Below are positions 19,975 through 57,772 of a stretch of 57,772 bases of DNA, in pieces. This DNA comes from Candidatus Magasanikiibacteriota bacterium. GTDB lineage: Bacteria; Patescibacteriota; Patescibacteriia; Magasanikbacterales; GWA2-37-8. Under the pieces are notes generated by a model that was given only the letters and a program-made list of their open reading frames with translations, did no database searches and had not been told where the DNA came from. Made by a program: the position numbers and the translations under genes. The DNA is taken from positions 1 through 57,772 of the forward strand of contig JAGOQR010000001.1 of NCBI GenBank assembly GCA_017991415.1, written 5' to 3'. Position 1 is the first letter of the stretch. Each line of letters starts with the position of its first letter.

Positions 19975-20925
19975 TTATTCGAGGGCTGCGGCACCACCAG
20001 CAATTTCGGCAATTTCTTGAGTGATTCCTGCCTGTCTTCCTTTGTTAAAGGTTAGGTTTAGCTCGTCAATCATATCTTTGGCAGCATCGGTAGCACTTCT
20101 CATCGCAAGCATTCGGCTACTATGTTCACTTGCCGAAGATTCAAGCATGGTTTGATAAATTTGTGATTCTACAAGTCTTGGTAAAATTATTTTTAAAACA
20201 TCTGTTTTATTTGGCTCAAAAAGATAATCAGTTAAATTGGTTTTTTGTGGCGCTTCTGCAGTAGACATACCTCCCAATTCTACCAATGTTTTTTCCAGGT
20301 CAGATTCGGATATTGGTAGCACCTGTCTTAATCTTGCAGTTTGTACCAGGGCAGATTTAAAATCGGTATAGGCGACAATAATCTTGTCATACATTTTTTT
20401 CTCATACGCATCAATAACCATTTTGGCAATTGGCAAGGCATCATCAAAACTAGGTGTATCAGTCATGTTGGTAAAAGCAGCGGTGAGATTGTATCCCATT
20501 TTTTTCGCAAAGTCTGCACCTTTTCTGCCGATACCTACAACATCTACGGATATATTTGTTTTAGGCAAAATTTCTTCACCATCAATCATTTGTTTGGCAA
20601 TAGCTTGAGGATTCTTCATTTGCAGTGCTGTTTTTTTGATAATGTTGGCATTAAAACTACCGCACAAACCACGATTTGAAGTGATAATAATCATTAAGAT
20701 TTTTTCTACGGGTCTTACCTCGAGTAGTGGAATTTGTACTTTTTGCATTTTGGAAAGATTTACCAAAAGCTCCCAAGCCAAACTAGAATAAGCACGCGTA
20801 TCCAGGGCAGCATTTACTGCTTTGCGCATTTTGGCAGCCGCAATCATCTCCATAGCTTTGGTAATTTTTTTGGTACTACCAATGGATTTGATGCGACGTT
20901 TGATTGTTTTTGTATTAATTGCCAT
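19975..20925 (-). CDS. atpG: F1 ATP synthase gamma subunit
   Basis: 316 aa with N-terminal IKSIGSTKKITKAMEMIAAAK and C-terminal ITQEIAEIAGGAAAL. Confidence 0.93.
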   Translation of the reverse strand: MAINTKTIKRRIKSIGSTKKITKAMEMIAAAKMRKAVNAALDTRAYSSLAWELLVNLSKMQKVQIPLLEVRPVEKILMIIITSNRGLCGSFNANIIKKTALQMKNPQAIAKQMIDGEEILPKTNISVDVVGIGRKGADFAKKMGYNLTAAFTNMTDTPSFDDALPIAKMVIDAYEKKMYDKIIVAYTDFKSALVQTARLRQVLPISESDLEKTLVELGGMSTAEAPQKTNLTDYLFEPNKTDVLKIILPRLVESQIYQTMLESSASEHSSRMLAMRSATDAAKDMIDELNLTFNKGRQAGITQEIAEIAGGAAALE

Positions 20926-23905: not shown

Positions 23906-24694
23906 CTAATGCTTTTCTTTGGCATGGCCGTGTGGTTTGGTTGTTAATACGGTAAGGTATACCAGTGTTAACATCGTAAATACACTTGCCTGAATAATAC
24001 CTACTAAAATTTCTAACATCATAAATGGTGCTGGAACAAGCAAAGCGGCGATACTGCTTATTACAGAAATTAAAACTTCGCCAGCAAAAACATTTCCAAA
24101 TAATCTAAGTGACAGCGATAGTACTTTGGCCATTTCACTTACTATTTCGATAAGACCAACTGCTAATTCTACAATAGCGGTAAAAATTGCCACCGGGCCT
24201 TTGGTAAGACTTTTGAAAAAAGTACCAATCTGAACAAATTTATTTAAGTGGGTAAAAATACCTACCGTAAATAGACCAAAAATATGTGAGGCAACTACAG
24301 AAACAAGAGCCATAGCTACAGTAAGATTGAGGTCTGTATTGGCTGGACGAAGAAGCGGTGCTCCGCCTATAGTAATACTACCTGTGCCTGGTAAAAGACC
24401 GAGCCAGTTTGATAATAAGATAAAGAAAAAGAGGGAGCCGACAATTGGTAAAAATTGAATAGTCTTTTTACGGTCGCCTGTCACCTGATCGAAGTAAACA
24501 AATAATTTTTCTAAGAAGAATTCTATAAAATTTTGAATTTTGGTTGGTTTTAATTTTATTTTTTTTCTCAAAACAAGCCCGAGGATTAAAAAGATTCCTA
24601 TTGCTAACCATGTATTTATCATGGTGTTAGTAATAGGAAACTTTCCAATATGGAGTATGGTTTCTGGTGCAAGAGTTGGGATATGTAATTCCAT
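23906..24694 (-). CDS. atpB: Fo ATP synthase a subunit
   Basis: Polytopic protein with the conserved LSLSLRLFGNVFAGE region. I moved the start to ATG 24694 (MELHIPTL...) because the longer ORF, reaching 24841, overlaps atpI. Confidence 0.88.
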   Translation of the reverse strand: MELHIPTLAPETILHIGKFPITNTMINTWLAIGIFLILGLVLRKKIKLKPTKIQNFIEFFLEKLFVYFDQVTGDRKKTIQFLPIVGSLFFFILLSNWLGLLPGTGSITIGGAPLLRPANTDLNLTVAMALVSVVASHIFGLFTVGIFTHLNKFVQIGTFFKSLTKGPVAIFTAIVELAVGLIEIVSEMAKVLSLSLRLFGNVFAGEVLISVISSIAALLVPAPFMMLEILVGIIQASVFTMLTLVYLTVLTTKPHGHAKEKH

Positions 24695-24719
24695 AATCAC
24701 GAGTGGTAAATAAGAAAAT

Positions 24720-25004
24720 TTATTTATTTTTTTCTTCTGATCCTGGATTTTTCCCAGCATCATTAAGTTTTTTGTATTCTGCGCCGTATTCTTGAGCTTT
24801 TTTGTGAATAATTTTGGCAGAAATGAGTGCGGCGAAAACAAAACCTAAAATTGTAAATAACGGAGATGAATTACGTGTTTTGTCTGCGTACTGCCCTATC
24901 ATTACAAGAACCACCACTGGCACAGCGATAGAAGCACCAAAATTACTGATTATTTTGAGCGCTAAAATGTAATAGTCTCTGCTTGTTGGTTTCTGATTTT
25001 CCAT
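24720..25004 (-). CDS. atpI: AtpI/AtpZ-like small membrane protein
   Basis: Two-TM protein at the head of the atp operon. I placed the start at ATG 25004 (MENQKP...) because the predicted promoter's -10 ends 1 nt from the ATG at 25028. Confidence 0.55.
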   Translation of the reverse strand: MENQKPTSRDYYILALKIISNFGASIAVPVVVLVMIGQYADKTRNSSPLFTILGFVFAALISAKIIHKKAQEYGAEYKKLNDAGKNPGSEEKNK

Positions 25005-25135: not shown

Positions 25136-25378
25136 ATGCCCGTAAAAAAACGGCGTCCAAAAGCTTCTTTTGATACTACTCAAGAAGCTCCACTGCCCCC
25201 GGCTACCCCAGAGGTTCTGCCAGAAGAGGAGCCTTTTGACTTGGCAGCAGAGGCTGCCGCGCTCATTCCCCAAGCCACTCAACGGCTTTTTCCACCTGAT
25301 ACTGTTACGACAGAGACAAAATACCAAGATCTCTATCAAGTAGCTGCAGGCAGAGTCTGGCCAAAGCTCAAGCCGTAG
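25136..25378 (+). CDS. island ORF1: 80-aa Pro/Ala/Glu-rich hypothetical protein
   Basis: AAGGAG lies 9 nt upstream of ATG 25136. The ORF has intermediate GC, reads MPVKKRRPKASFDTTQEAPLPPATPEVLPEEEPFDL..., and has no recognisable motif. Confidence 0.4.
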   Translation: MPVKKRRPKASFDTTQEAPLPPATPEVLPEEEPFDLAAEAAALIPQATQRLFPPDTVTTETKYQDLYQVAAGRVWPKLKP

Positions 25379-25704: not shown

Positions 25705-26256
25705 ATGGAGCACGTGATTGTTAACACTACCCATGGAAACTCCCGTGGGTACAGCCGTGTCGCCCTGTGTAAGCGCAGACTAGGCTGTTGTAGAGAAGGG
25801 TCTCACTTCCATGTGGAGAACTACTCGAGCGCTAGCGCTCGGAGTCCGTTCTCTCAGTCGGGTCCCTTCACCTGCTGTGACGACGCATTCGACGAGATCC
25901 AAGAAGCCCCGTGCGCGACGCGCGAACAGCAGATGCAGGCCGTTCTGGATGCGATGAACGCGGGCACCCTCCCGTTGAAGGAGGATGACCTCGACCGAAT
26001 CTTCAACGAGCCTGAGAATGGCTTCATGGTGGCTGAGGGTATGGAAAAGCTCGCCTCCATTCACGAGCTCTTGATGATGGAGAAGCTCTACGATGCGGCT
26101 CCTACCGACAAGCTCGTCGCCACGGAAGAAGTCGTCGGTGTGACCGACGACGATGACGACGGCTTCCCGGAGATCTCCGTCGAAGAACCTCCTCCCGTCC
26201 GCCGTCGAAACCCGCAGCCCGCGATCACCGCGAGCGGCGAGATCAGCGCCAGCTGA
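25705..26256 (+). CDS. island ORF2: 183-aa acidic hypothetical protein (high GC)
   Basis: AAGGAGG lies 10 nt upstream of ATG 25705, and third codon positions are strongly G/C in this frame. The sequence reads MEHVIVNTTHG...DDDDDGFPEISVEEPPPVRRRNPQP..., with no recognisable motif. Confidence 0.6.
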   Translation: MEHVIVNTTHGNSRGYSRVALCKRRLGCCREGSHFHVENYSSASARSPFSQSGPFTCCDDAFDEIQEAPCATREQQMQAVLDAMNAGTLPLKEDDLDRIFNEPENGFMVAEGMEKLASIHELLMMEKLYDAAPTDKLVATEEVVGVTDDDDDGFPEISVEEPPPVRRRNPQPAITASGEISAS

Positions 26257-26486: not shown

Positions 26487-26663
26487 ATGCAAAAACGCAA
26501 ACCAAGCTCTTTCATGAAACTCTGCGATGACATGTTCGTCGCGGGAACGCTCTTCGGTGGCGCGGTCATGGAGATCGCGCTCAAGAAGTGGGACGCCTGG
26601 AGGGCAAACAAGGATCGCCATCGCCGCGTCGTCCGCAACAAGTACCCCCAGCACCACTCCTAA
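26487..26663 (+). CDS. island ORF3: 58-aa small protein with one hydrophobic stretch and a basic tail, below the ORF-track cutoff
   Basis: Hand translation gives MQKRKPSSFMKLCDDMFVAGTLFGGAVMEIALKKWDAWRANKDRHRRVVRNKYPQHHS*. G/C is enriched at third codon positions. Confidence 0.4.
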   Translation: MQKRKPSSFMKLCDDMFVAGTLFGGAVMEIALKKWDAWRANKDRHRRVVRNKYPQHHS

Positions 26664-26827: not shown

Positions 26828-27046
26828 ATGATCGGCAAACTTCTCTCCAAGGTCGGAATCCTCAAAGAGTTCTACGATCTCCTTACTCCGACGATGATTG
26901 CTCAGATCATCTTCGGAACAATTCTCTCGCTGAGCTTGCTGGCTGGTATGATCGCGACCATACCCTTCAGCCTACCGCTCTTCCTGGGCTACATCTTGCT
27001 GGAGTACTACCGACAAGACAAGGGGGCGCTTCGCTCGTACGTCTGA
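26828..27046 (+). CDS. island ORF4: 72-aa two-TM small membrane protein
   Basis: GGGAGG lies 11 nt upstream of the ATG. The protein reads MIGKLLSKVGILKEFYDLLTPTMIAQIIFGTILSLSLLAGMIATIPFSLPLFLGYILLEYYRQDKGALRSYV, with G/C-rich third codon positions. Confidence 0.6.
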   Translation: MIGKLLSKVGILKEFYDLLTPTMIAQIIFGTILSLSLLAGMIATIPFSLPLFLGYILLEYYRQDKGALRSYV

Positions 27047-51186: not shown

Positions 51187-53238
51187 TTATTGCTTATTCA
51201 TAAGCACTACTTCATCTCTTCCATCAAAATCCACATCAACAGCACCGACTGTTACTGGCCCAGTGGTAAAACTCGAAGAAACTTTAAACTGTGATAATAA
51301 TTTACCTGCTATGGTATAAATTTTTATTTGCTTATATTTTCCAAAATCATAGGAAACAATTATCTCTTTTTGAGCATCACCGGTTACATTTCCCACAGCT
51401 ACCCCCAAGTCTCCTTTGAGCCGAGCTGTATCTACAAAAAATCTTTTATTAATTTTGGAAAAATTATTGTTATATATAATTACTTCGGGTCTAGCACCAT
51501 TGCCGCGCGCTACAACTATCTGGCCATTTTTATCTGGCGCCACAACCGCATCTTCGGCAATAGCCACAGACAAACCAGCTTTGTATGTTTTGCCTAATGG
51601 AAAAATATTTTCTTTCACGATACCGCCGTGGTAATTGTATATTACTGCTTGACCACCTTTATTTTGAGTCACCACAATTGAATCTGTGCGCGCACCGCCA
51701 ATTTTGCCAATCGCGATTCTTAATTCACCTTTATAATTAGCAAAAGGAAAACCTTCGAACCATATTTGATTGCTACTATTAAATATTTGCAATTTTTGAC
51801 CAGTGACAATAATTTTTTCTTCTTGACCGTCGGCATCAAGATCGCCATAGTATATTTGAGCGCCTCCCAAAATACCTTCTTCATAAATAAAAAGACCGTT
51901 ACGAGCACGATTTCCTTTAACATCAAAAAATCGCACAAAATTTCCATTGCCAAAAACTAAATTTTTTAATGTTTGAAATGTTCGAAGCATTATAACTCCA
52001 TCTTTTGCAGGCAAGCTGAGCTGGCTTACAATAGCTCCGTTATTAATATTTTTATCCTGAGTACCTGTTAACTTTTCATACTCTCCTCCCAAATCTATAT
52101 CCTGAGACTGAGCTGTGGCATTTACAAGCGCAATTCCATTTTCATACTCACGTCGCCAGACATCTTCTTCGAATTGCGGTTTATTATTTAACGAAAGTGC
52201 AGTTCCAAGCGGCTTACCAAGCTCTACATCATACTCATCATACCACCATGTTTGATTATGATTTTGATCTCCAAAATCATAGGAATAATATCCGTCGAGC
52301 ATTAGGGTGCTGGCGAGTCCAAAACGAACTTTTTTTAAATTACTTGTTTCGGTACCTTTGTTACCTGTATTTGCATTAATAACCATAAACCGAGGCAACG
52401 GACCACCTTGTTGATTGGAGACATACAAACGCATCGTTTCTTTCCAGCTACCTGCATTCGGGAAACTTTCAAGCATGGCACCATTTAAATCATTTTTATA
52501 TGCATCGTTATTAGTATTTCCCATGATAATAAAACGATCGCCTGCCAATCTTCTTGTTTCCTGATACAGCTGACGCATACCTTGTTGCCAATGACCATCA
52601 ATATCGGAATCTGGCACAGAATCTTTATTAAAGTCTACTCTATCTCCTGCAATCCACTTAACTTCTTTCCAAGCATTATCATAAAAAACACCATTCCACA
52701 ATCCAGTGGAAAAAATTTCTCTATTTACAAATTGAGCAAGATACTGGTTAAAACGTATGCCATTTATTTGCGGAGCAGTATCGGCGACATTAAGCATCCA
52801 AGTCCCCGGCCAAAAACTTATTTTATTGTTTTGAATATCTGTTAAATACCAATTTTGCTCTATACCAGAAACTAGCTTACGACGCATCATGCTATAGCTT
52901 GTGGCTGCATCTGTTTTAATTTCTTGAGGAGTAATATATGCAAGAAGTATGATGTCTGGATTAAGCTCTTTAATTTTTCTCAAAGCTGCCTGACTATTTA
53001 CTTGGGTCTCCATATCCAAAATAAGCAAATCCCATTTTGCTAACTCTGGTATTTTGGAAGCTGGGATATCCCATCCTAAAAAATAATTCGCACGACGCGG
53101 AGATATTCGCACAGCCGAAGAGCCTCCAGGAAATAATAAACCAACATAACCTACCAAAACAAGCACTAAAGCAGCGGCCATCAGATGATGCCGCCCTAAA
53201 ACTATTTTTTTATTCCTCCTTTTTCTTTGTGCAGGCAT
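51187..53238 (-). CDS. signal-anchored exported protein: putative glycoside-hydrolase-like TIM-barrel domain plus FG-GAP/VCBS-like repeats
   Basis: 683 aa with an N-terminal TM helix (LMAAALVLVLVGYVGLL). C-terminal repeats carry Ca-binding-like DxDxDG motifs (GDLDADGQEE, VDVDFDGRDE). Confidence 0.45.
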   Translation of the reverse strand: MPAQRKRRNKKIVLGRHHLMAAALVLVLVGYVGLLFPGGSSAVRISPRRANYFLGWDIPASKIPELAKWDLLILDMETQVNSQAALRKIKELNPDIILLAYITPQEIKTDAATSYSMMRRKLVSGIEQNWYLTDIQNNKISFWPGTWMLNVADTAPQINGIRFNQYLAQFVNREIFSTGLWNGVFYDNAWKEVKWIAGDRVDFNKDSVPDSDIDGHWQQGMRQLYQETRRLAGDRFIIMGNTNNDAYKNDLNGAMLESFPNAGSWKETMRLYVSNQQGGPLPRFMVINANTGNKGTETSNLKKVRFGLASTLMLDGYYSYDFGDQNHNQTWWYDEYDVELGKPLGTALSLNNKPQFEEDVWRREYENGIALVNATAQSQDIDLGGEYEKLTGTQDKNINNGAIVSQLSLPAKDGVIMLRTFQTLKNLVFGNGNFVRFFDVKGNRARNGLFIYEEGILGGAQIYYGDLDADGQEEKIIVTGQKLQIFNSSNQIWFEGFPFANYKGELRIAIGKIGGARTDSIVVTQNKGGQAVIYNYHGGIVKENIFPLGKTYKAGLSVAIAEDAVVAPDKNGQIVVARGNGARPEVIIYNNNFSKINKRFFVDTARLKGDLGVAVGNVTGDAQKEIIVSYDFGKYKQIKIYTIAGKLLSQFKVSSSFTTGPVTVGAVDVDFDGRDEVVLMNKQ

Positions 53239-53400: not shown

Positions 53401-54792
53401 ATGAACCATATTAAAAACTTTTCGATAAGCGCCTTGGCAGTTATTTTCTTGATAGTTTTTACTATTTTTAATCCGAATACAAGTTTGGACTTATCTGCTT
53501 TTTTACTTATCAGTTTTATTATTCTGCAAAAAATACTCGGTGAATATTTTATTTTGGTGCTCCTGGCTATACGTCCCACCCTAGATTATTGGCGAGATTA
53601 TAACCTTTTTTCTTTTTACAACTTCGACTTTAATACCAATGCCGCCTTATCTATTTTTTTATTAACCTGGAGTATAATTTTTTGCGTAAAAAATTATACC
53701 TACTTTAAAAATGTGCCACTCAAGGCACCGTGGCTTATTTTTATCATCTGGTGTTTTATCTCTGCGTTTTATACCTATCACATACCTTCAACCATAACCG
53801 AAGGTATAAAACTAGCAAACCTGTTTGGACTTTTTGCCATATGCCACATAATGGCTCAAAAAAACCCCGAGAAATTTAAAATAAATTTTCTAAAATCAAT
53901 TGTGGCGGCGGGCACAATTCCTATCCTCATTGGTGTTTGGCAATTTATCACTAAAACAGGGGTAGATATAGATGAGGTGTCAAATAGAATTTATGGAACA
54001 TTTGCTCACCCCAATGTATTAGCTACTTTTACCCTTGTGCTGCTTATTGTGGTAGCGCACGAAATTATTACTAAACAAAATAAATCTAGCGACTTTTTTG
54101 ATCTTAAAAAAGACTCACCATTAAAATTTTTAGGTCTATTTTTACTTTTTATTATTATCCTTACCTACACGCGCATTGCTTGGATTGGGGTTGCGCTCCT
54201 TGCAGCTATAATCGGCTTCATATACTACCGAAAACTCTTGGCATATACACTTGGAATAATTATTCTTTTTTATATTTTATTTTATCCAATTAATAATTAT
54301 TTAATCAATAATTATAATATAAATTTACAGTCCTCTACTCTTATCTTTAGGCTCACTGCTCGCAACCAAGACTCCGATTCAGTCCGATGGCGAACAAATT
54401 TAGCTACTAAAATCCTGCCTCTTTTTAGAGAAAAATATATTATTGGTTATGGCTATGGCACGTTTGCCAGGGTCTGGGATGATAACAAAGATATAGAAAA
54501 CTTATGGGATAATACGTCCGAAGCCCATAATGATTACATCAAAATAGCCTTTGAGTCTGGCATTATCGGACTCGCCCTTTTCTTACTTATTTTCTTCACT
54601 CTCCTGTATCGCCAGTTCATGTACGGAATAAAAAATAATTGGAAAAATATTGTACTTATTGCCAGCATTTTTGTATATCTTACACTAAGTCTTTCTGACA
54701 ACATGCTTCACCACACACCTGTTATCTGGTGGTTCTGGGCTATTTGGGGAACTTGGGAAGCGCTTCAACACACATCTTTAGCAGCAAAATAG
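53401..54792 (+). CDS. O-antigen ligase/polymerase-like (Wzy_C) polytopic membrane protein
   Basis: 463 aa with at least 10 TM helices and a periplasmic-loop motif EAHNDYIKIAFESGIIGL. Confidence 0.65.
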   Translation: MNHIKNFSISALAVIFLIVFTIFNPNTSLDLSAFLLISFIILQKILGEYFILVLLAIRPTLDYWRDYNLFSFYNFDFNTNAALSIFLLTWSIIFCVKNYTYFKNVPLKAPWLIFIIWCFISAFYTYHIPSTITEGIKLANLFGLFAICHIMAQKNPEKFKINFLKSIVAAGTIPILIGVWQFITKTGVDIDEVSNRIYGTFAHPNVLATFTLVLLIVVAHEIITKQNKSSDFFDLKKDSPLKFLGLFLLFIIILTYTRIAWIGVALLAAIIGFIYYRKLLAYTLGIIILFYILFYPINNYLINNYNINLQSSTLIFRLTARNQDSDSVRWRTNLATKILPLFREKYIIGYGYGTFARVWDDNKDIENLWDNTSEAHNDYIKIAFESGIIGLALFLLIFFTLLYRQFMYGIKNNWKNIVLIASIFVYLTLSLSDNMLHHTPVIWWFWAIWGTWEALQHTSLAAK

Positions 54793-54802
54793 AAACAAAA
54801 AA

Positions 54803-54868
54803 CCACCCGGGAGAGTCACCTAAATAAGTAAAAAATTATTTATTCGGGTGATCGGGTGGAAAATTTTT
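54803..54868 (+). terminator. three-segment hairpin terminator after the O-antigen-ligase-like gene
   Basis: CCACCCG pairs with CGGGTGG, TCACC with GGTGA, and TAAATAA with TTATTTA. The structure is followed by AAAATTTTT. Confidence 0.5.
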
Positions 54869-54953
54869 GCTAGGCAGATAAATCTGTCTATTTTTATTCG
54901 CTACAATGTAGCGGACACTTGAGACAGACTTTTTTATTATATAGAAATTTTTA

Positions 54954-55000
54954 TCGGAGAAGAGCTGCCGACACGACCTGCAATCTCCGATCTTCTCCGA
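54954..55000 (-). other. 3' hairpin downstream of paralog 1 (9-bp stem, 29-nt loop)
   Basis: TCGGAGAAG pairs with CTTCTCCGA. An equivalent structure follows paralog 2. Confidence 0.45.
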
Positions 55001-55027
55001 CACCAGATAACCCCTTCCCAACCATCA

Positions 55028-55702
55028 CTACGATGGCGGCACAACGACGACCTCTACCCACGCTTGGTACAACGCTGCACCATCTGCACAGGCGATCGTA
55101 AGTCGAGCCAGCTGCGGTTGAGCGATGGACATCTGCATGGTGTGGGATGGCGAAGGGTAGCTACCCGTCAAACCACCGCCCATACCAGTACAGTACATTC
55201 CGCTCCCAATATCATCCGGCGCGTTGTAGTGCAGGTTGAAGGCGATGCCTGCAATCGCTTGCATGGGAGCGTCGAGCTCCAACGCGTACACGCGGAACGT
55301 GGCCATCACATCCTCGGTACCGGGCGGACCCGAACAAACGAGGGTGTAGTCGGTGAGACCACCGATCGGCGACACCACGATGCGACCCGAGAGCCGAGTT
55401 CCCTGGATCGTGGTCGCGAGCGGCCCGTTCCAGTCGAGCACCGACGCACCATGGTTGGTGGTGCCAGTACACGAAGCGGCGTTCTCGACCTCGAAGACCA
55501 GCGTGGTCTCGGGGTGGTTCGCCCGGAGGTTGGACGTCGGCTCCAACCCGAAGCTCAGCAAGCTGAGCGGGGGCGGAGGGGCGTCGATGGGGGTAGGCTT
55601 GGCATCAACTGCCATAGCAACCTCATCAAGACCGAACACCTGATTGCAACCGACACTCGCAACAGTAGCGAGCATCACCACAAACAGTTTGATAACGTTC
55701 AT
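55028..55702 (-). CDS. high-GC secreted lipoprotein, paralog 1 (two Cys-pair beta-sandwich-like modules)
   Basis: 224 aa with signal peptide and candidate lipobox MNVIKLFVVMLATVASVGC. GAGG lies 8 nt upstream of the ATG, and third codon positions are G/C-rich. Confidence 0.75.
   Translation of the reverse strand: MNVIKLFVVMLATVASVGCNQVFGLDEVAMAVDAKPTPIDAPPPPLSLLSFGLEPTSNLRANHPETTLVFEVENAASCTGTTNHGASVLDWNGPLATTIQGTRLSGRIVVSPIGGLTDYTLVCSGPPGTEDVMATFRVYALELDAPMQAIAGIAFNLHYNAPDDIGSGMYCTGMGGGLTGSYPSPSHTMQMSIAQPQLARLTIACADGAALYQAWVEVVVVPPS
55211..55593. repeat. 383-nt block identical to 56147-56529 except for one 6-nt patch
   Basis: Base-by-base comparison at a constant offset of 936 nt. The only differences are GGCCAT (55301-55306) versus CCCAGT (56237-56242). 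Confidence 0.95.
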
Positions 55703-55769
55703 CGAAAGACCTCGGGGTTTATGTAGAGCATACGCGTTATGCGCACACTTCGGACTCTTTATTATCGTC

Positions 55770-55800
55770 CTAAATGTAATAATTTTTTTATTACATTTAG
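55770..55800. promoter_or_regulatory. perfect 11-bp inverted repeat upstream of paralog 1 (operator-like)
   Basis: CTAAATGTAAT, loop aattttttt, ATTACATTTAG. It lies 68-98 nt upstream of ATG 55702 in a spacer of about 15% GC. Confidence 0.45.
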
Positions 55801-55884
55801 AAAGACAATTAATATTTTTAAATTTTTATTTAATCAGTCATCTATTTTACTACCATTTATATATTGATAGTAAAAATTTATGAC

Positions 55885-55931
55885 AGGAGAAGCGCGCCGC
55901 TACAACAACCACAATCTCTGCTGCTTCTCCT
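55885..55931 (-). other. 3' hairpin downstream of paralog 2 (9-bp stem, 29-nt loop)
   Basis: AGGAGAAGC pairs with GCTTCTCCT. The geometry matches 54954-55000, but the stem ends differ while still pairing. Confidence 0.45.
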
Positions 55932-55963
55932 CGCCTCGATCTCTCGAGGGCTTCGGTTGCCAC

Positions 55964-56662
55964 CTACGATGGCGGCACGATGCTTACCTGGACCCAGGCG
56001 CGGTACATGACTGCGCCATCGGTACAGGTGATAGTGAACGTGACTAGTTGCGGTGACGACACCGACACCTGCATGGTGTGCGAGGGTGAAGGGTAGCTAC
56101 CCGACAGGCCGCCACCAGTTCCTACGCACCGATCTCCTGAACGAACATCATCCGGCGCGTTGTAGTGCAGGTTGAAGGCGATGCCTGCAATCGCTTGCAT
56201 GGGAGCGTCGAGCTCCAACGCGTACACGCGGAACGTCCCAGTCACATCCTCGGTACCGGGCGGACCCGAACAAACGAGGGTGTAGTCGGTGAGACCACCG
56301 ATCGGCGACACCACGATGCGACCCGAGAGCCGAGTTCCCTGGATCGTGGTCGCGAGCGGCCCGTTCCAGTCGAGCACCGACGCACCATGGTTGGTGGTGC
56401 CAGTACACGAAGCGGCGTTCTCGACCTCGAAGACCAGCGTGGTCTCGGGGTGGTTCGCCCGGAGGTTGGACGTCGGCTCCAACCCGAAGCTCAGCAAGCT
56501 GAGCGGGGGCGGAGGGGCGTCGATGGGGGCGTCGACGATCAGGGTATCGGGCGGGGGTGAGCCATCCGAATCGATCGAAGCGTCGACATCTTCTGCCCCG
56601 CGCGGCTCGAAGGCACAGGCCGTGAGAAGCATGGCGAAAATCAGAACAGGAAATGAGCGCAT
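55964..56662 (-). CDS. high-GC secreted lipoprotein, paralog 2
   Basis: 232 aa with signal peptide and lipobox MRSFPVLIFAMLLTAC. The central 128 codons are identical to paralog 1 apart from two codons. Confidence 0.78.
   Translation of the reverse strand: MRSFPVLIFAMLLTACAFEPRGAEDVDASIDSDGSPPPDTLIVDAPIDAPPPPLSLLSFGLEPTSNLRANHPETTLVFEVENAASCTGTTNHGASVLDWNGPLATTIQGTRLSGRIVVSPIGGLTDYTLVCSGPPGTEDVTGTFRVYALELDAPMQAIAGIAFNLHYNAPDDVRSGDRCVGTGGGLSGSYPSPSHTMQVSVSSPQLVTFTITCTDGAVMYRAWVQVSIVPPS
56147..56529. repeat. second copy of the 383-nt near-identical block
   Basis: See 55211-55593. Confidence 0.95.
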
Positions 56663-56748
56663 GATCCCTCGTGAGCAAAACCACTATGGTTTGCTAGTTA
56701 TGACCCTAAGGGCCGTGAAATTGTCGAGAGGCAAGTAGTTCTTACTGC

Positions 56749-56787
56749 CCTAAATCTAACAAGGAAGTTTTCATTGTGAAATTTAGG
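56749..56787. promoter_or_regulatory. inverted repeat CCTAAAT...ATTTAGG upstream of paralog 2
   Basis: 7-bp arms with the same CTAAAT/ATTTAG core as 55770-55800. It lies 87-125 nt upstream of ATG 56662. Confidence 0.35.
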
Positions 56788-56893
56788 ATGATAAAAATAA
56801 TTTAATTGTATTGTACTATACTTTGCTTAAATTCGAAATTAGATTTTACAACTGATCATTCCCCTATTTTTCAATAAGAAAATAATTTATTGT

Positions 56894-56931
56894 GTGCGGA
56901 TGTTCTCTCTTCTCTGAGAGAACATCCGCAC
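56894..56931 (-). terminator. perfect 16-bp hairpin downstream of the repeat-protein gene
   Basis: GTGCGGATGTTCTCTC, loop ttctct, GAGAGAACATCCGCAC. It lies 88 nt past the stop at 57019, with a weak U-rich tail on the minus strand. Confidence 0.55.
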
Positions 56932-57018
56932 TGGCCTCATGTCGCTTGCCCTTGATTCACATCAATGGTGTTGCAGACATTTCCGATTTTGATGAGGTTC
57001 GGAAGAACCATGGTCGAC

Positions 57019-57772
57019 CTACAGCGTCGGGTCGTCCGGCAGGTTGTTCTTGCCGTCGAAGCTGCACTTCGTCACCCCGGTGTACTCCTTGAAGGAGAGG
57101 GTGCCGTTGCCACCGTAGTACTCGATGGTGCAGTCGAACGGTTGCGCCGAGATCACCGAGCACGCGCCAGCCTGGGGAACCCAGGCATACGAAGCAGTGA
57201 TCGGTACCGAGCCGAGGTCGGGAGCCGGCTGAACACCGCCCCACCCACCCCAAGCGTTGAGCATGTCGGTCAGCGCGCTCGTGCGGCGAGTCTTGATTCC
57301 ACCGCAGTTGATGGCTCGCTGCTTGCACACACCAGCCGAACAGTAGCCTTGCGTCCAGGTGTAGGACGCGGGGCACTGGCTATCCATGCTGCACATGGCG
57401 GACGGCGAAGCCAGCGTGACGACCTCCGAGTCCGAAGCGGACCCGCTGGTACCCGTGCAGTTCACCGTGAAGGTGTTCTGCCCGACCGTGCTCACCGTGA
57501 CGGTGACCGAGCCGGAGGTACCGACCGAACCCGTGATCCAGTTCGCGGTGCAGCCGTTGACGTTGTTCGTCATCCAGCTGACCGTGACGGGACCGGGAGC
57601 GGAGAGGTTGTTCGTGCTGACCGTGACGTTCACGGACGGCGTGAGCGGCGAAGCCAGCGTGACGACCTCCGAGTCCGAAGCGGACCCGCTGGTACCCGTG
57701 CAGTTCACCGTGAAGGTGTTCTGCCCGACCGTGCTCACCGTGACGGTGACCGAGCCGGAGGTACCGACCGAA
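57019..57772 (-). CDS. high-GC repeat-containing secreted protein, 5'-truncated by the window edge (Ig-like 81-aa modules plus a Cys-rich C-terminal domain)
   Basis: The frame stays open to the window end. The track's 'M' at 57738 is an internal GTG inside a repeat. Modules have the pattern ...GCTANWITGSVGTSGSVTVTVSTVGQNTFTVNCTGTSGSASDSEVVTLASP. The C-terminal domain has 9 Cys. Confidence 0.75.
   Translation of the reverse strand, partial: SVGTSGSVTVTVSTVGQNTFTVNCTGTSGSASDSEVVTLASPLTPSVNVTVSTNNLSAPGPVTVSWMTNNVNGCTANWITGSVGTSGSVTVTVSTVGQNTFTVNCTGTSGSASDSEVVTLASPSAMCSMDSQCPASYTWTQGYCSAGVCKQRAINCGGIKTRRTSALTDMLNAWGGWGGVQPAPDLGSVPITASYAWVPQAGACSVISAQPFDCTIEYYGGNGTLSFKEYTGVTKCSFDGKNNLPDDPTL
57403..57772. 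repeat. tandem coding repeat, period 243 nt
   Basis: 57403-57529 (127 nt) is identical to 57646-57772. The second copy runs off the window. Confidence 0.9.

Follow-up and report, generated by a model that had tools for sequence, protein, structure and literature searches.

What keeps a small group of genes GC-rich within an otherwise AT-rich bacterial chromosome? This question is raised by the end of a 57,772-nt stretch of contig JAGOQR010000001.1 from an uncultured Patescibacteria lineage (the whole stretch is hereafter called the window, W). Positions 54950-57772 of the window form an island of exported-protein genes with a GC content of 57.0%, compared to 37.4% in the remaining 54.9 kb. 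It is debated whether biased gene conversion or selection, beyond mutation alone, shapes bacterial base composition. The known bacterial signals are small averages over many genes, whereas this locus offers a contrast of ~45 points in GC content at third codon positions (GC3) at the resolution of single genes. With a fixed site in several related genomes, visible conversion tracts and native AT-rich spacers as internal controls, it allows the question to be tested directly by population metagenomics. What is described here with high confidence is the composition of the island, the structure of its genes, the conversion tracts, the synteny and the restricted distribution. As to its cause, the reading favoured here, held tentatively and at slightly less than even confidence, is that the GC-richness is maintained by a GC-favouring fixation bias, most likely tied to recombination.

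Composition and gene content of the island

An earlier note on this DNA, made from the sequence alone, had described three minus-strand genes coding for exported proteins at the end of the window. All three are present, and they are arranged as follows.

55028-55702, minus strand: gene 1 (type B), a 224-aa lipoprotein (MNVIKLFVVMLATVASVGC...) with the lipobox ASVGC and two predicted immunoglobulin-like (Ig-like) beta domains; GC 0.60, GC3 0.72
55964-56662, minus strand: gene 2 (type A), a 232-aa lipoprotein (MRSFPVLIFAMLLTAC...) with the lipobox LLTAC, a tandem paralog of gene 1; GC 0.63, GC3 0.75
57019 to >57772, minus strand: gene 3, 3' part of 250 codons, cut by the window end at 57772; GC 0.65, GC3 0.87
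57403-57772, minus strand: intragenic tandem repeat in gene 3 with a period of 243 nt (81 aa, one Ig-like module), ~1.5 copies visible

The GC3 values of these genes (0.72, 0.75 and 0.87) lie far above those of the comparison set, the 36 larger open reading frames (ORFs) elsewhere in the window, which range from 0.22 to 0.38 at an overall GC content of about 37%. Because of this contrast the composition is a nucleotide-level property and no by-product of amino-acid content, which rules out amino-acid content alone as its cause, a possibility that the earlier note had left standing. Third positions in the island are occupied by C (0.42), G (0.34), T (0.18) and A (0.06). The codons TTA, ATA, ACA and GTA are almost missing, while GGT and CGT are kept. 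The amino-acid usage is shifted as well: glycine, alanine, arginine and proline make up 28% of the residues compared to 21.5% in core proteins, phenylalanine, tyrosine, methionine, isoleucine, asparagine and lysine 18% compared to 32%, and the arginine to lysine ratio is raised. This shifted codon and amino-acid usage could stem from long GC pressure elsewhere or from pressure in situ. Genes that are expected to be well expressed, such as atpA, atpD and mreB, have a GC3 of 0.30, which argues against a genome-wide translational selection toward GC-ending codons.

Read in 100-nt windows, the three ORFs have a local GC content of 0.57-0.70, which drops to 0.18-0.25 at 55750-55899 and 56750-56899, in the cores of the spacers. 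The earlier note had put the genes at ~68% and the spacers at ~15% GC. The alternation as such is borne out, with values of 60-65% for the genes and 15-25% for the spacer cores, and two counts made by hand (41/60 G+C at 55381-55440 in coding DNA, 9/60 at 55801-55860 in a spacer) are exact. Likewise, the genome around the island genes is AT-rich, as had been stated, at the 37.4% GC of the rest of the window. The extreme AT-richness that had been ascribed to promoter and 3' regions is, however, a property of the cores only. The full intergenic intervals have 37-40% GC, because they also hold GC-rich terminator hairpins and 5' leaders. Their layout is given below.

54793-55027, minus strand: left island border; a terminator-like hairpin at 54952-55002 belongs to gene 1, and the junction to the neighbouring Wzy_C gene is AT-rich
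55703-55963, minus strand: spacer between genes 2 and 1, with the terminator-like hairpin of gene 2 at 55885-55931 and a core at 55740-55880 of 21% GC
56663-57018, minus strand: spacer between genes 3 and 2, with a perfect 16-bp hairpin terminator at 56894-56931 (z = -6.0) and a core at 56745-56890 of 24% GC

In the gene 3/gene 2 spacer, a promoter-like site of gene 2 (TTCACA-16-TAGATT with a TG extension, 56780-56753) lies within the palindrome CTAAAT-N25-ATTTAG at 56750-56786, and is followed by a leader of ~85 nt and a GAGGGA ribosome-binding site. The gene 2/gene 1 spacer contains the palindrome CTAAAT-N19-ATTTAG at 55770-55800, followed by the 5' leader of gene 1, again of ~85 nt, with a GAGG ribosome-binding site. 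Thus, as had been noted before, each gene has its own AT-rich promoter region, and from its sequence elements each island gene is predicted to be a transcription unit of its own, with an AT-rich sigma-70-type promoter region and a hairpin terminator. The window holds just two sequences of the form CTAAAT-N19-25-ATTTAG, where 0.43 would be expected by chance, and both lie in the promoter spacers of the type A and B genes. The palindrome is found at matching places in related contigs (L002 1663-1699 and 2653-2683; L003 36-72; L088 12979-13013; L-numbers denote related loci or contigs, L001-L004 and L085-L091, and P-numbers database proteins), and may be the operator of a shared regulator. No Rfam match at gathering score and no tRNA was found in the window, and a structured RNA or tRNA as the cause of the unusual composition was rejected on these grounds.

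The spacers are well conserved. The gene 2/gene 1 spacer is 82.5% identical to its L002 counterpart, the gene 3/gene 2 spacer 91-94% to those in L002 and L003, and the left junction 92% to L004 and 85% to L087 as far as the L087 contig reaches. Conservation between strains is thus 82-94% for island spacers, compared to 78-92% for other longer intergenic spacers in the lineage. The spacers are functional, native-type DNA.

Lipoboxes were read by eye from the protein sequences. Two lipoprotein signals had been recognised in the earlier note, ASVGC of gene 1 and LLTAC of gene 2, and both are present. The signals are not confined to these two genes, however, as a third one (…AALMGC, lipobox ALMGC) is provided by the database protein P0008. 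In related proteins the lipoboxes FLGGC, VVSAC, ACAGC, TFTGC and VITAC are found. The Cys-pair motifs SCTG...YTLVCSG and GCTANW...FTVNCTG, which had been pointed out as well, both occur, and the products are indeed built from related Cys-pair modules of the beta-sandwich (Ig-like) type. In gene 3, Ig-like Cys-pair repeat modules (GCTANW...FTVNCTG) precede a Cys-rich C-terminal domain. P0006 corresponds exactly to the 250-aa fragment of gene 3 in the window. P0008 (locus tag KBC69_00305) is a partial protein of 206 aa, listed for a 474,234-bp contig; it has the lipoprotein signal and a Big_7 domain (E = 1.8e-11), and runs into the first part of the gene 3 repeat. From this overlap it is probably the N-terminal part of gene 3. 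If P0008 does carry the part of gene 3 that is missing from the window, the assembly would have broken in the repeat. The repeat copies share 127 nt at 100% identity in blastn, and the window, as apparently the 474,234-bp contig too, ends within them, which suggests an assembly gap, or possibly a circularisation point, within the gene 3 repeat. Tandem Repeats Finder does not report the 243-nt repeat, of which just 1.5 copies lie in the window.

Pfam scans covered the island genes of the window, 27 of its 36 larger ORFs outside the island, and the island genes of L085, L088 and L089, and precomputed Pfam matches on related contigs were also used. In this set, the type A and B proteins and the window part of gene 3 have no Pfam match. 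The type A and B proteins have no PHROG or PDB match either, and a PDB sequence search with gene 3 gave none. Big_7 is also present in a 454-aa protein of L089, and Big_9 together with Cadherin_5 in a 510-aa protein of L085, while Calx-beta stays below the cutoff. The AlphaFold2 model of the type A protein is all-beta but of low confidence (mean predicted local distance difference test score, pLDDT, 55), and a Foldseek search with this low-confidence model gives weak matches to tandem Ig domains, namely titin Z1Z2 and intimin D0-D1, at a template-modelling score of about 0.25. On L085, a standalone 169-aa lipoprotein shares 60% identity with the C-terminal domain of gene 3, and a cadherin-like body carries the C-terminal domain of the Big_7 protein; both are instances of modular shuffling. 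We infer a surface location for the products. Given the Big_7, Calx-beta and cadherin-like domains and the fast protein divergence described below, a role at the cell surface or in host contact may reasonably be proposed, and the locus is a strong candidate for variable cell-surface or host-contact proteins of this uncultured Patescibacteria lineage.

Conservation of the site and recombination within it

The window is ordinary chromosome, with genes for alanine racemase, SerRS, LysRS, PBP2, MreB, an AddA-like helicase, the ATP synthase operon, MetRS, MurB, MurC, transketolase and others. Its AtpD is 94% identical to that of the metagenome-assembled genome (MAG) CAZUFD01 and 72-79% identical to those of MAGs labelled Patescibacteria, Saccharibacteria, Falkowbacteria and similar. 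CAZUFD01 itself (L005/L088, CAZUFD010000003.1) is titled 'uncultured Gammaproteobacteria bacterium', yet it is syntenic with the window. Several 'binchicken' third-party annotation MAGs with 72-76% identical AtpD bear similar labels, which looks like taxonomic mislabelling. The island is flanked on its left by the following two genes.

51187-53238, minus strand: GHL15-family putative glycosyl hydrolase with FG-GAP repeats, a cell-envelope gene beside the island
53401-54792, plus strand: Wzy_C gene, coding for an O-antigen-ligase-like membrane protein (Pfam); GC3 0.34, normal composition

As the flanking genes are cell-envelope genes, the island lies in a neighbourhood of cell-surface biogenesis. 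The Wzy_C gene was used as the anchor for recovering related syntenic regions, listed below with the identity of their Wzy_C to that of the window.

L087: Wzy_C 93%; the contig stops 438 nt beyond Wzy_C, within the type B gene
L088 (MAG CAZUFD01): Wzy_C 72%; a GC-rich gene for a 243-aa lipoprotein, then the contig end
L089 (109.6-kb contig): Wzy_C 73%; five GC-rich minus-strand genes, then a giant gene of normal composition
L090 and L091 (133 and 164 kb): Wzy_C 65%; the same five genes as in L089

The island thus occupies the same locus in W, L087, L088, L089, L090 and L091, and patchy presence among these relatives was not seen. In L089, the five genes code for a type B protein, a type A protein, a 454-aa Big_7/Calx-beta lipoprotein, a 286-aa exported protein and a 226-aa membrane protein. 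They have a GC3 of 0.59-0.85 with AT-rich spacers between them, and the next gene (>1,247 aa) has a GC3 of 0.30. The order of Wzy_C, island and giant gene is the same in L089, L090 and L091. This giant gene (L089 17632-21375; L090 17548 to >21413) codes for >1,247 to 1,925 aa, has a normal composition and has no recorded Pfam match. Beyond 57772 the window probably continues like L089, with the giant gene just past the window end.

The alternation of GC-rich genes and AT-rich spacers recurs in about ten independent assemblies. It is present on independent NCBI, ENA, Logan and JGI contigs (L001-L004, L085 and L086), and the few homologs of the island proteins all lie on contigs with this alternation. 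An identical gene 1 protein occurs on the independent NCBI metagenome contig L001 and on an 831,086-bp contig, and gene 1 orthologs are found in L004, L002, L087, L089 and L090. The earlier note had asked whether the junction at about 54.9 kb is real: it is reproduced in independent assemblies and in contigs of >100 kb. Neither are the homologs in sister genomes AT-rich, as the note had considered they might be; there, too, they are GC-rich. Related assemblies often break at or inside the island: three related contigs end there, and most homologs lie on contigs of 1-4 kb. Two homolog contigs with coverage in their name are at about 0.8-0.9x. The breaks are accounted for by the perfect repeats and the paralogs. 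Islands of this kind break assemblies, and composition-based binning or decontamination may discard them, so that a systematic loss from MAGs is possible.

Between these lineages, core genes are saturated at synonymous sites (pS 0.72-0.79; differences at 4-fold degenerate sites reach 88-95% of the randomised expectation). Together with the shared site, this saturation means that the GC-rich state has persisted at one locus through a long divergence. The best reading of its distribution is that the locus is specific to one Patescibacteria lineage (NCBI label Candidatus Magasanikbacteria) and is inherited vertically. Placed between the Wzy_C gene and the giant gene, it codes for a set of exported proteins, most of them lipoproteins, with Ig-like, Big_7, Calx-beta or cadherin-like modules.

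Genes 1 and 2 constitute a 936-nt tandem duplication, within which blastn aligns two nearly identical segments.

56147-56527, minus strand: conversion tract in gene 2, 381 nt, codons about 46-172
55211-55591, minus strand: partner conversion tract in gene 1

Over the 381 nt the paralogs are identical but for one 4-nt cluster (about 99%), whereas identity is about 70% in the flanks of the tract and falls to ~45-72%, or to unalignable sequence, in the region of the signal peptide, the C-terminal domain and the spacers. Such a sharply bounded, near-identical tract between diverged flanks is a hallmark of segmental gene conversion. In 20-codon blocks of the window genes, identity is 0.93-1.00 and GC3 0.78-1.00 within the tract, compared to 0.45-0.72 and 0.45-0.70 outside. 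L089 has a conversion tract of its own elsewhere in the paralog pair (codons 121-200), and the L090 paralogs also hold identical segments, so that concerted evolution has recurred independently. Furthermore, the 243-nt repeats of gene 3 can change in copy number.

The proteins diverge fast. Between W and L087, the C-terminus of the type B protein is 78% identical, compared to 88-94% for Wzy, GHL15 and MurC, and in deeper lineages type A and B proteins are 24-36% identical, compared to 61-85% for core proteins. Between L089 (13592-16182) and L090 (13569-16131), the Big_7 gene and the gene for the 286-aa protein differ at 33% and 46% of 4-fold sites, respectively, compared to 65-71% for core genes, even though both proteins are ~70% identical; the type A and B genes of the same pair are saturated at 4-fold sites. 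The low 4-fold divergence reflects either a recent allele exchange between lineages or synonymous constraint. Conversion, fast divergence and copy-number change of the repeats would together generate surface variation.

Possible origin and maintenance of the GC-richness

The first of two explanations offered in the earlier note was an import from a high-GC donor followed by rewiring to local promoters. An exhaustive HMMER profile search with the type A/B paralog family against 1.84 billion representative proteins (E<=0.001) returned six proteins. Two of these are true type A/B members, the close P0002 and the distant P0010 (36% identity), both on contigs with the alternating pattern, and the remaining four are Ig-like repeat proteins that match weakly. 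No type A/B homolog was thus found in a high-GC organism among these representatives; word-indexed and exhaustive HMMER searches alike gave the family itself plus weak, generic Ig-like repeat proteins, and pattern scans of GTDB representative genomes and JGI contigs gave nothing. Mobility was looked for as well. By Pfam, no integrase, transposase or conjugation genes are present in the scanned island genes and window ORFs or on related contigs; the L088 island has only a DUF559 gene nearby. The window contains no tRNA or tmRNA, and no direct repeats were found at the visible left border, the right border lying outside the window. With no donor, no mobility genes, tRNA or flanking repeats, and the same locus in at least four saturated lineages, a recent import is dismissed.

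Other kinds of element were considered and rejected. IMG/VR viral contigs hold no relatives and phage and plasmid collections no blastn matches. PHROG has no family for the island proteins of the window, its one weak match (E 9e-4) being to a 226-aa protein of a related locus. A phage, plasmid or virus origin was rejected on these negatives. The locus lacks the defining features of a diversity-generating retroelement target and of an integron cassette array. In the former case, Pfam scans of 25 of the 27 ORFs of >=300 aa (all but 19975-20925 and 23906-24841) gave no reverse transcriptase domain, no repeats occur other than the paralog tract and the tandem repeat of 243 nt, and mismatches show no adenine specificity. 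In the latter, no integrase was found by Pfam, the hairpins after the genes are large-looped and terminator-like (no formal attC model was run), and each island gene comes with a 260-360-nt spacer holding a promoter-like region and a leader, unlike promoterless cassettes.

An equilibrium GC3 was fitted to synonymous third positions with a non-stationary two-state maximum-likelihood model on three-taxon sets (~380 sites). This model took the place of a parsimony polarisation of synonymous changes, which was dropped because it is biased under skewed composition. The AT-rich spacers were also dropped as a neutral yardstick, since they are conserved like other intergenic DNA. The fitted equilibrium GC3 of the island is 0.56-0.58 (approximate 95% interval 0.39-0.69), compared to 0.36-0.39 for flanking core genes. 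A joint likelihood-ratio test against the core equilibrium gives p = 0.03, and single genes give p = 0.12-0.13. This is borderline evidence for a distinct, GC-favouring substitution regime in the island, possibly with some ongoing loss of GC.

The coding and transcribed blocks of the island have a GC3 of 0.6-0.9 in a genome with about 0.3. The reading favoured here is that of a hypervariable surface-lipoprotein locus in which a fixation bias in favour of GC would uphold the GC-richness in situ, linked to frequent recombination (GC-biased gene conversion, gBGC) through conversion between paralogs and probably exchange between strains, and an ancient foreign origin possibly lies beneath this maintenance in situ. 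A recombining gene family driven GC-rich by biased conversion was the second explanation offered in the earlier note. Its support is direct though incomplete: sharp conversion tracts are seen in two genomes, GC3 is raised within the tract of the window but without clear contrast in L089, and the fitted equilibrium lies above that of the core at borderline significance.

Several observations weigh against this reading. With p ~0.03 the equilibrium test is borderline, and it depends on ~380 sites analysed on three-taxon trees under a two-state model, which is degenerate on a saturated deep core triplet; the fitted ancestral GC3 of 0.77-0.87 exceeds the equilibrium, so that slow loss of GC is possible. 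The spacers, being as conserved as other intergenic DNA, provide no neutral gauge of the local mutation bias. The GC-richness tracks transcription units and not conversion tracts, as the non-converted parts still have a GC3 of 0.45-0.70, and in L089 the blocks of highest identity (0.90-0.98) have a GC3 of 0.50-0.65 while its GC3 peaks (0.75-0.78) lie in more divergent blocks. On the sense strand, A is scarcer than T at third positions (0.06 compared to 0.18), which a strand-symmetric process such as gBGC does not predict on its own. In addition, the difference of about +45 GC3 points is far above the effects of gBGC reported for bacteria (PMC4450053). Finally, this codon usage is shared by the genes of Island 1 (25.7-27.1 kb), which have no paralog in the window.

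Island 1 belongs to the 25.1-27.1 kb stretch which, together with the island itself, is the only part of the window with >52% GC over >260 nt. It consists of three small plus-strand genes at 25705-26256, 26487-26663 and 26828-27046 (183, 58 and 72 aa, GC3 ~0.66-0.80), the last product being a predicted membrane protein. They are surrounded by minus-strand core genes, the ATP synthase operon lying on one side and tatD on the other, and have near-consensus AT-rich promoters of their own (e.g. TTGACA-17-TATATT) and terminator-like inverted repeats downstream. They code for no lipoproteins and have no Pfam or PHROG match. Since their codon usage resembles that of the island, GC-rich genes extend beyond the recombining lipoprotein family. 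An 80-aa ORF at 25136-25378 (plus strand), in a block of 50-59% GC, is a contrasting case: its product is rich in Pro, Ala and Glu, and with a GC1 of 0.78 and a GC3 of 0.36 its composition is amino-acid-driven.

An assembly chimera, contamination or very recent transfer joined at about 54.9 kb can hardly be credited. The composition does change abruptly at 54.95 kb, the window does end within the island and several related contigs do break here, but the perfect repeats and paralogs account for the breaks. Moreover, spacer cores of 15-25% GC with conserved promoter and operator motifs alternate with the genes, the same structure is found in about ten independent assemblies, protein P0004 is also present on an 831,086-bp contig, and L089, L090 and L091 have their islands flanked on both sides by normal AT-rich genes on contigs of 109-164 kb. 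A chimera or contamination was rejected on this independent recurrence and bracketing within >100-kb contigs. A far more serious alternative, which is possible though distinctly less probable than maintenance by fixation bias, is that an ancestor of the clade imported the genes long ago from an unknown high-GC donor, that they gained native promoters and that they have been ameliorating slowly ever since. Their codon usage is like that of a genome of ~60-65% GC and their amino-acid composition is shifted too. The inferred ancestral GC3 (0.77-0.87, or 0.83-0.93 under the null) is above the present value in several genes, which amounts to a net loss, and the null equilibrium of 0.39 is not rejected gene by gene (p = 0.12-0.13). 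The unrelated small genes of Island 1 show the same codon usage, as would be expected of several imports from one source. Yet no type A/B homolog turned up in high-GC organisms among the 1.84 billion representatives, nor was an integrase, transposase, tRNA or flanking direct repeat found, and the joint test disfavours the core equilibrium (p = 0.03). The native-type AT-rich promoter DNA around every gene would need gene-by-gene insertion or full replacement of the spacers, and in each saturated lineage several genes still have a GC3 of 0.78-0.87, a level that decay at the core rate would hardly leave even if GC3 had started at ~1.

A further alternative is selection on RNA or translation. Here the units would be kept GC-rich as stable, structured mRNAs resisting AU-targeting RNases, or for gating by rare codons, and recombination would be incidental. 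The GC-rich blocks coincide with transcription units, from 5' leader to terminator hairpin, rather than with homology tracts, A-ending codons are avoided on the sense strand (A3 0.06 compared to T3 0.18, with ACA, ATA, TTA and GTA almost missing), synonymous sites of the Big_7 and 286-aa genes are more conserved than those of the core despite fast protein divergence, and the codon usage recurs in Island 1, where no paralogs are visible. However, an A3 below T3 is common in ordinary high-GC genomes and hence does not discriminate, atpA, atpD and mreB have a GC3 of 0.30, and selection on synonymous sites is expected to be weak in small-genome symbionts. This alternative is accordingly regarded as improbable, clearly more so than an ancient import. 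Maintenance by a recombination-tied fixation bias stays the preferred, if tentative, reading. Its boldest form, in which the genes are gene-sized GC-rich 'isochores' long kept by a very strong GC-favouring bias due to hyper-recombination at a surface-variation locus and represent the strongest gBGC-like case in prokaryotes, is possible but less likely than not. More speculative still is the idea that the codon usage matches that of a GC-rich host or partner, with genes or mRNAs acting in or coming from that partner.

Relation to known systems

In literature searches, no description of GC-rich gene islands in Patescibacteria was found, and the locus has to be compared with systems from other bacteria. 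It resembles classical genomic islands in its strongly atypical composition and codon usage and in its cargo of surface proteins. Unlike these, it has no mobility genes, tRNA target, flanking repeats or donor that could be found, its internal spacers are of the host type, and its site and at least part of its gene set are conserved across the related assembled lineages.

The nearest mechanistic precedent is the association of GC3 with recombination in bacteria (Lassalle et al. 2015; PMC4450053), in which recombinant and non-recombinant core genes differ modestly on average. GC3 is here, too, higher with recombination, as seen in the window tract and in a fitted equilibrium above that of the core. 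In contrast to that precedent, the difference amounts to ~45 GC3 points, concerns a few genes only and is bounded by transcription units.

The variable surface lipoprotein families of the Mollicutes (Vsp, Vlp and Vsa) have in common with the island that lipoprotein genes are clustered in a reduced AT-rich genome, with perfect intragenic tandem repeats and rapid divergence between strains. The island proteins have no sequence homology to these families, and neither a homopolymer tract in the promoters nor an invertible element with a recombinase is seen at the island. The Mollicute families are not known to be GC-rich islands.

The vls system of Borrelia (vlsE with its silent cassettes) shares with the island a surface lipoprotein, an AT-rich genome and segmental conversion between adjacent copies. 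The vls sequences have G-rich codons and G-runs despite an AT-rich codon usage (PMC3585125), and in both systems the composition of the locus is shifted to G/C against the codon bias of the genome. The arrangement is different, as the island has no expression site with promoterless silent cassettes: both paralogs are complete, with a promoter, a ribosome-binding site and a signal peptide, and no further paralog copies occur in the 57.8-kb window. The shift also takes another form. G-runs number 27 per kb on one strand of vls, but 11.0 and 13.8 per kb on the two strands of the island, without strand bias, and the island has no G-quadruplex motif; it is enriched in both G and C at third positions, over whole transcription units and in single-copy neighbours too. 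In its behaviour, the locus comes closest to the surface-variation systems by gene conversion in AT-rich bacteria, with the lipoprotein families of the Mollicutes as a further similar case.

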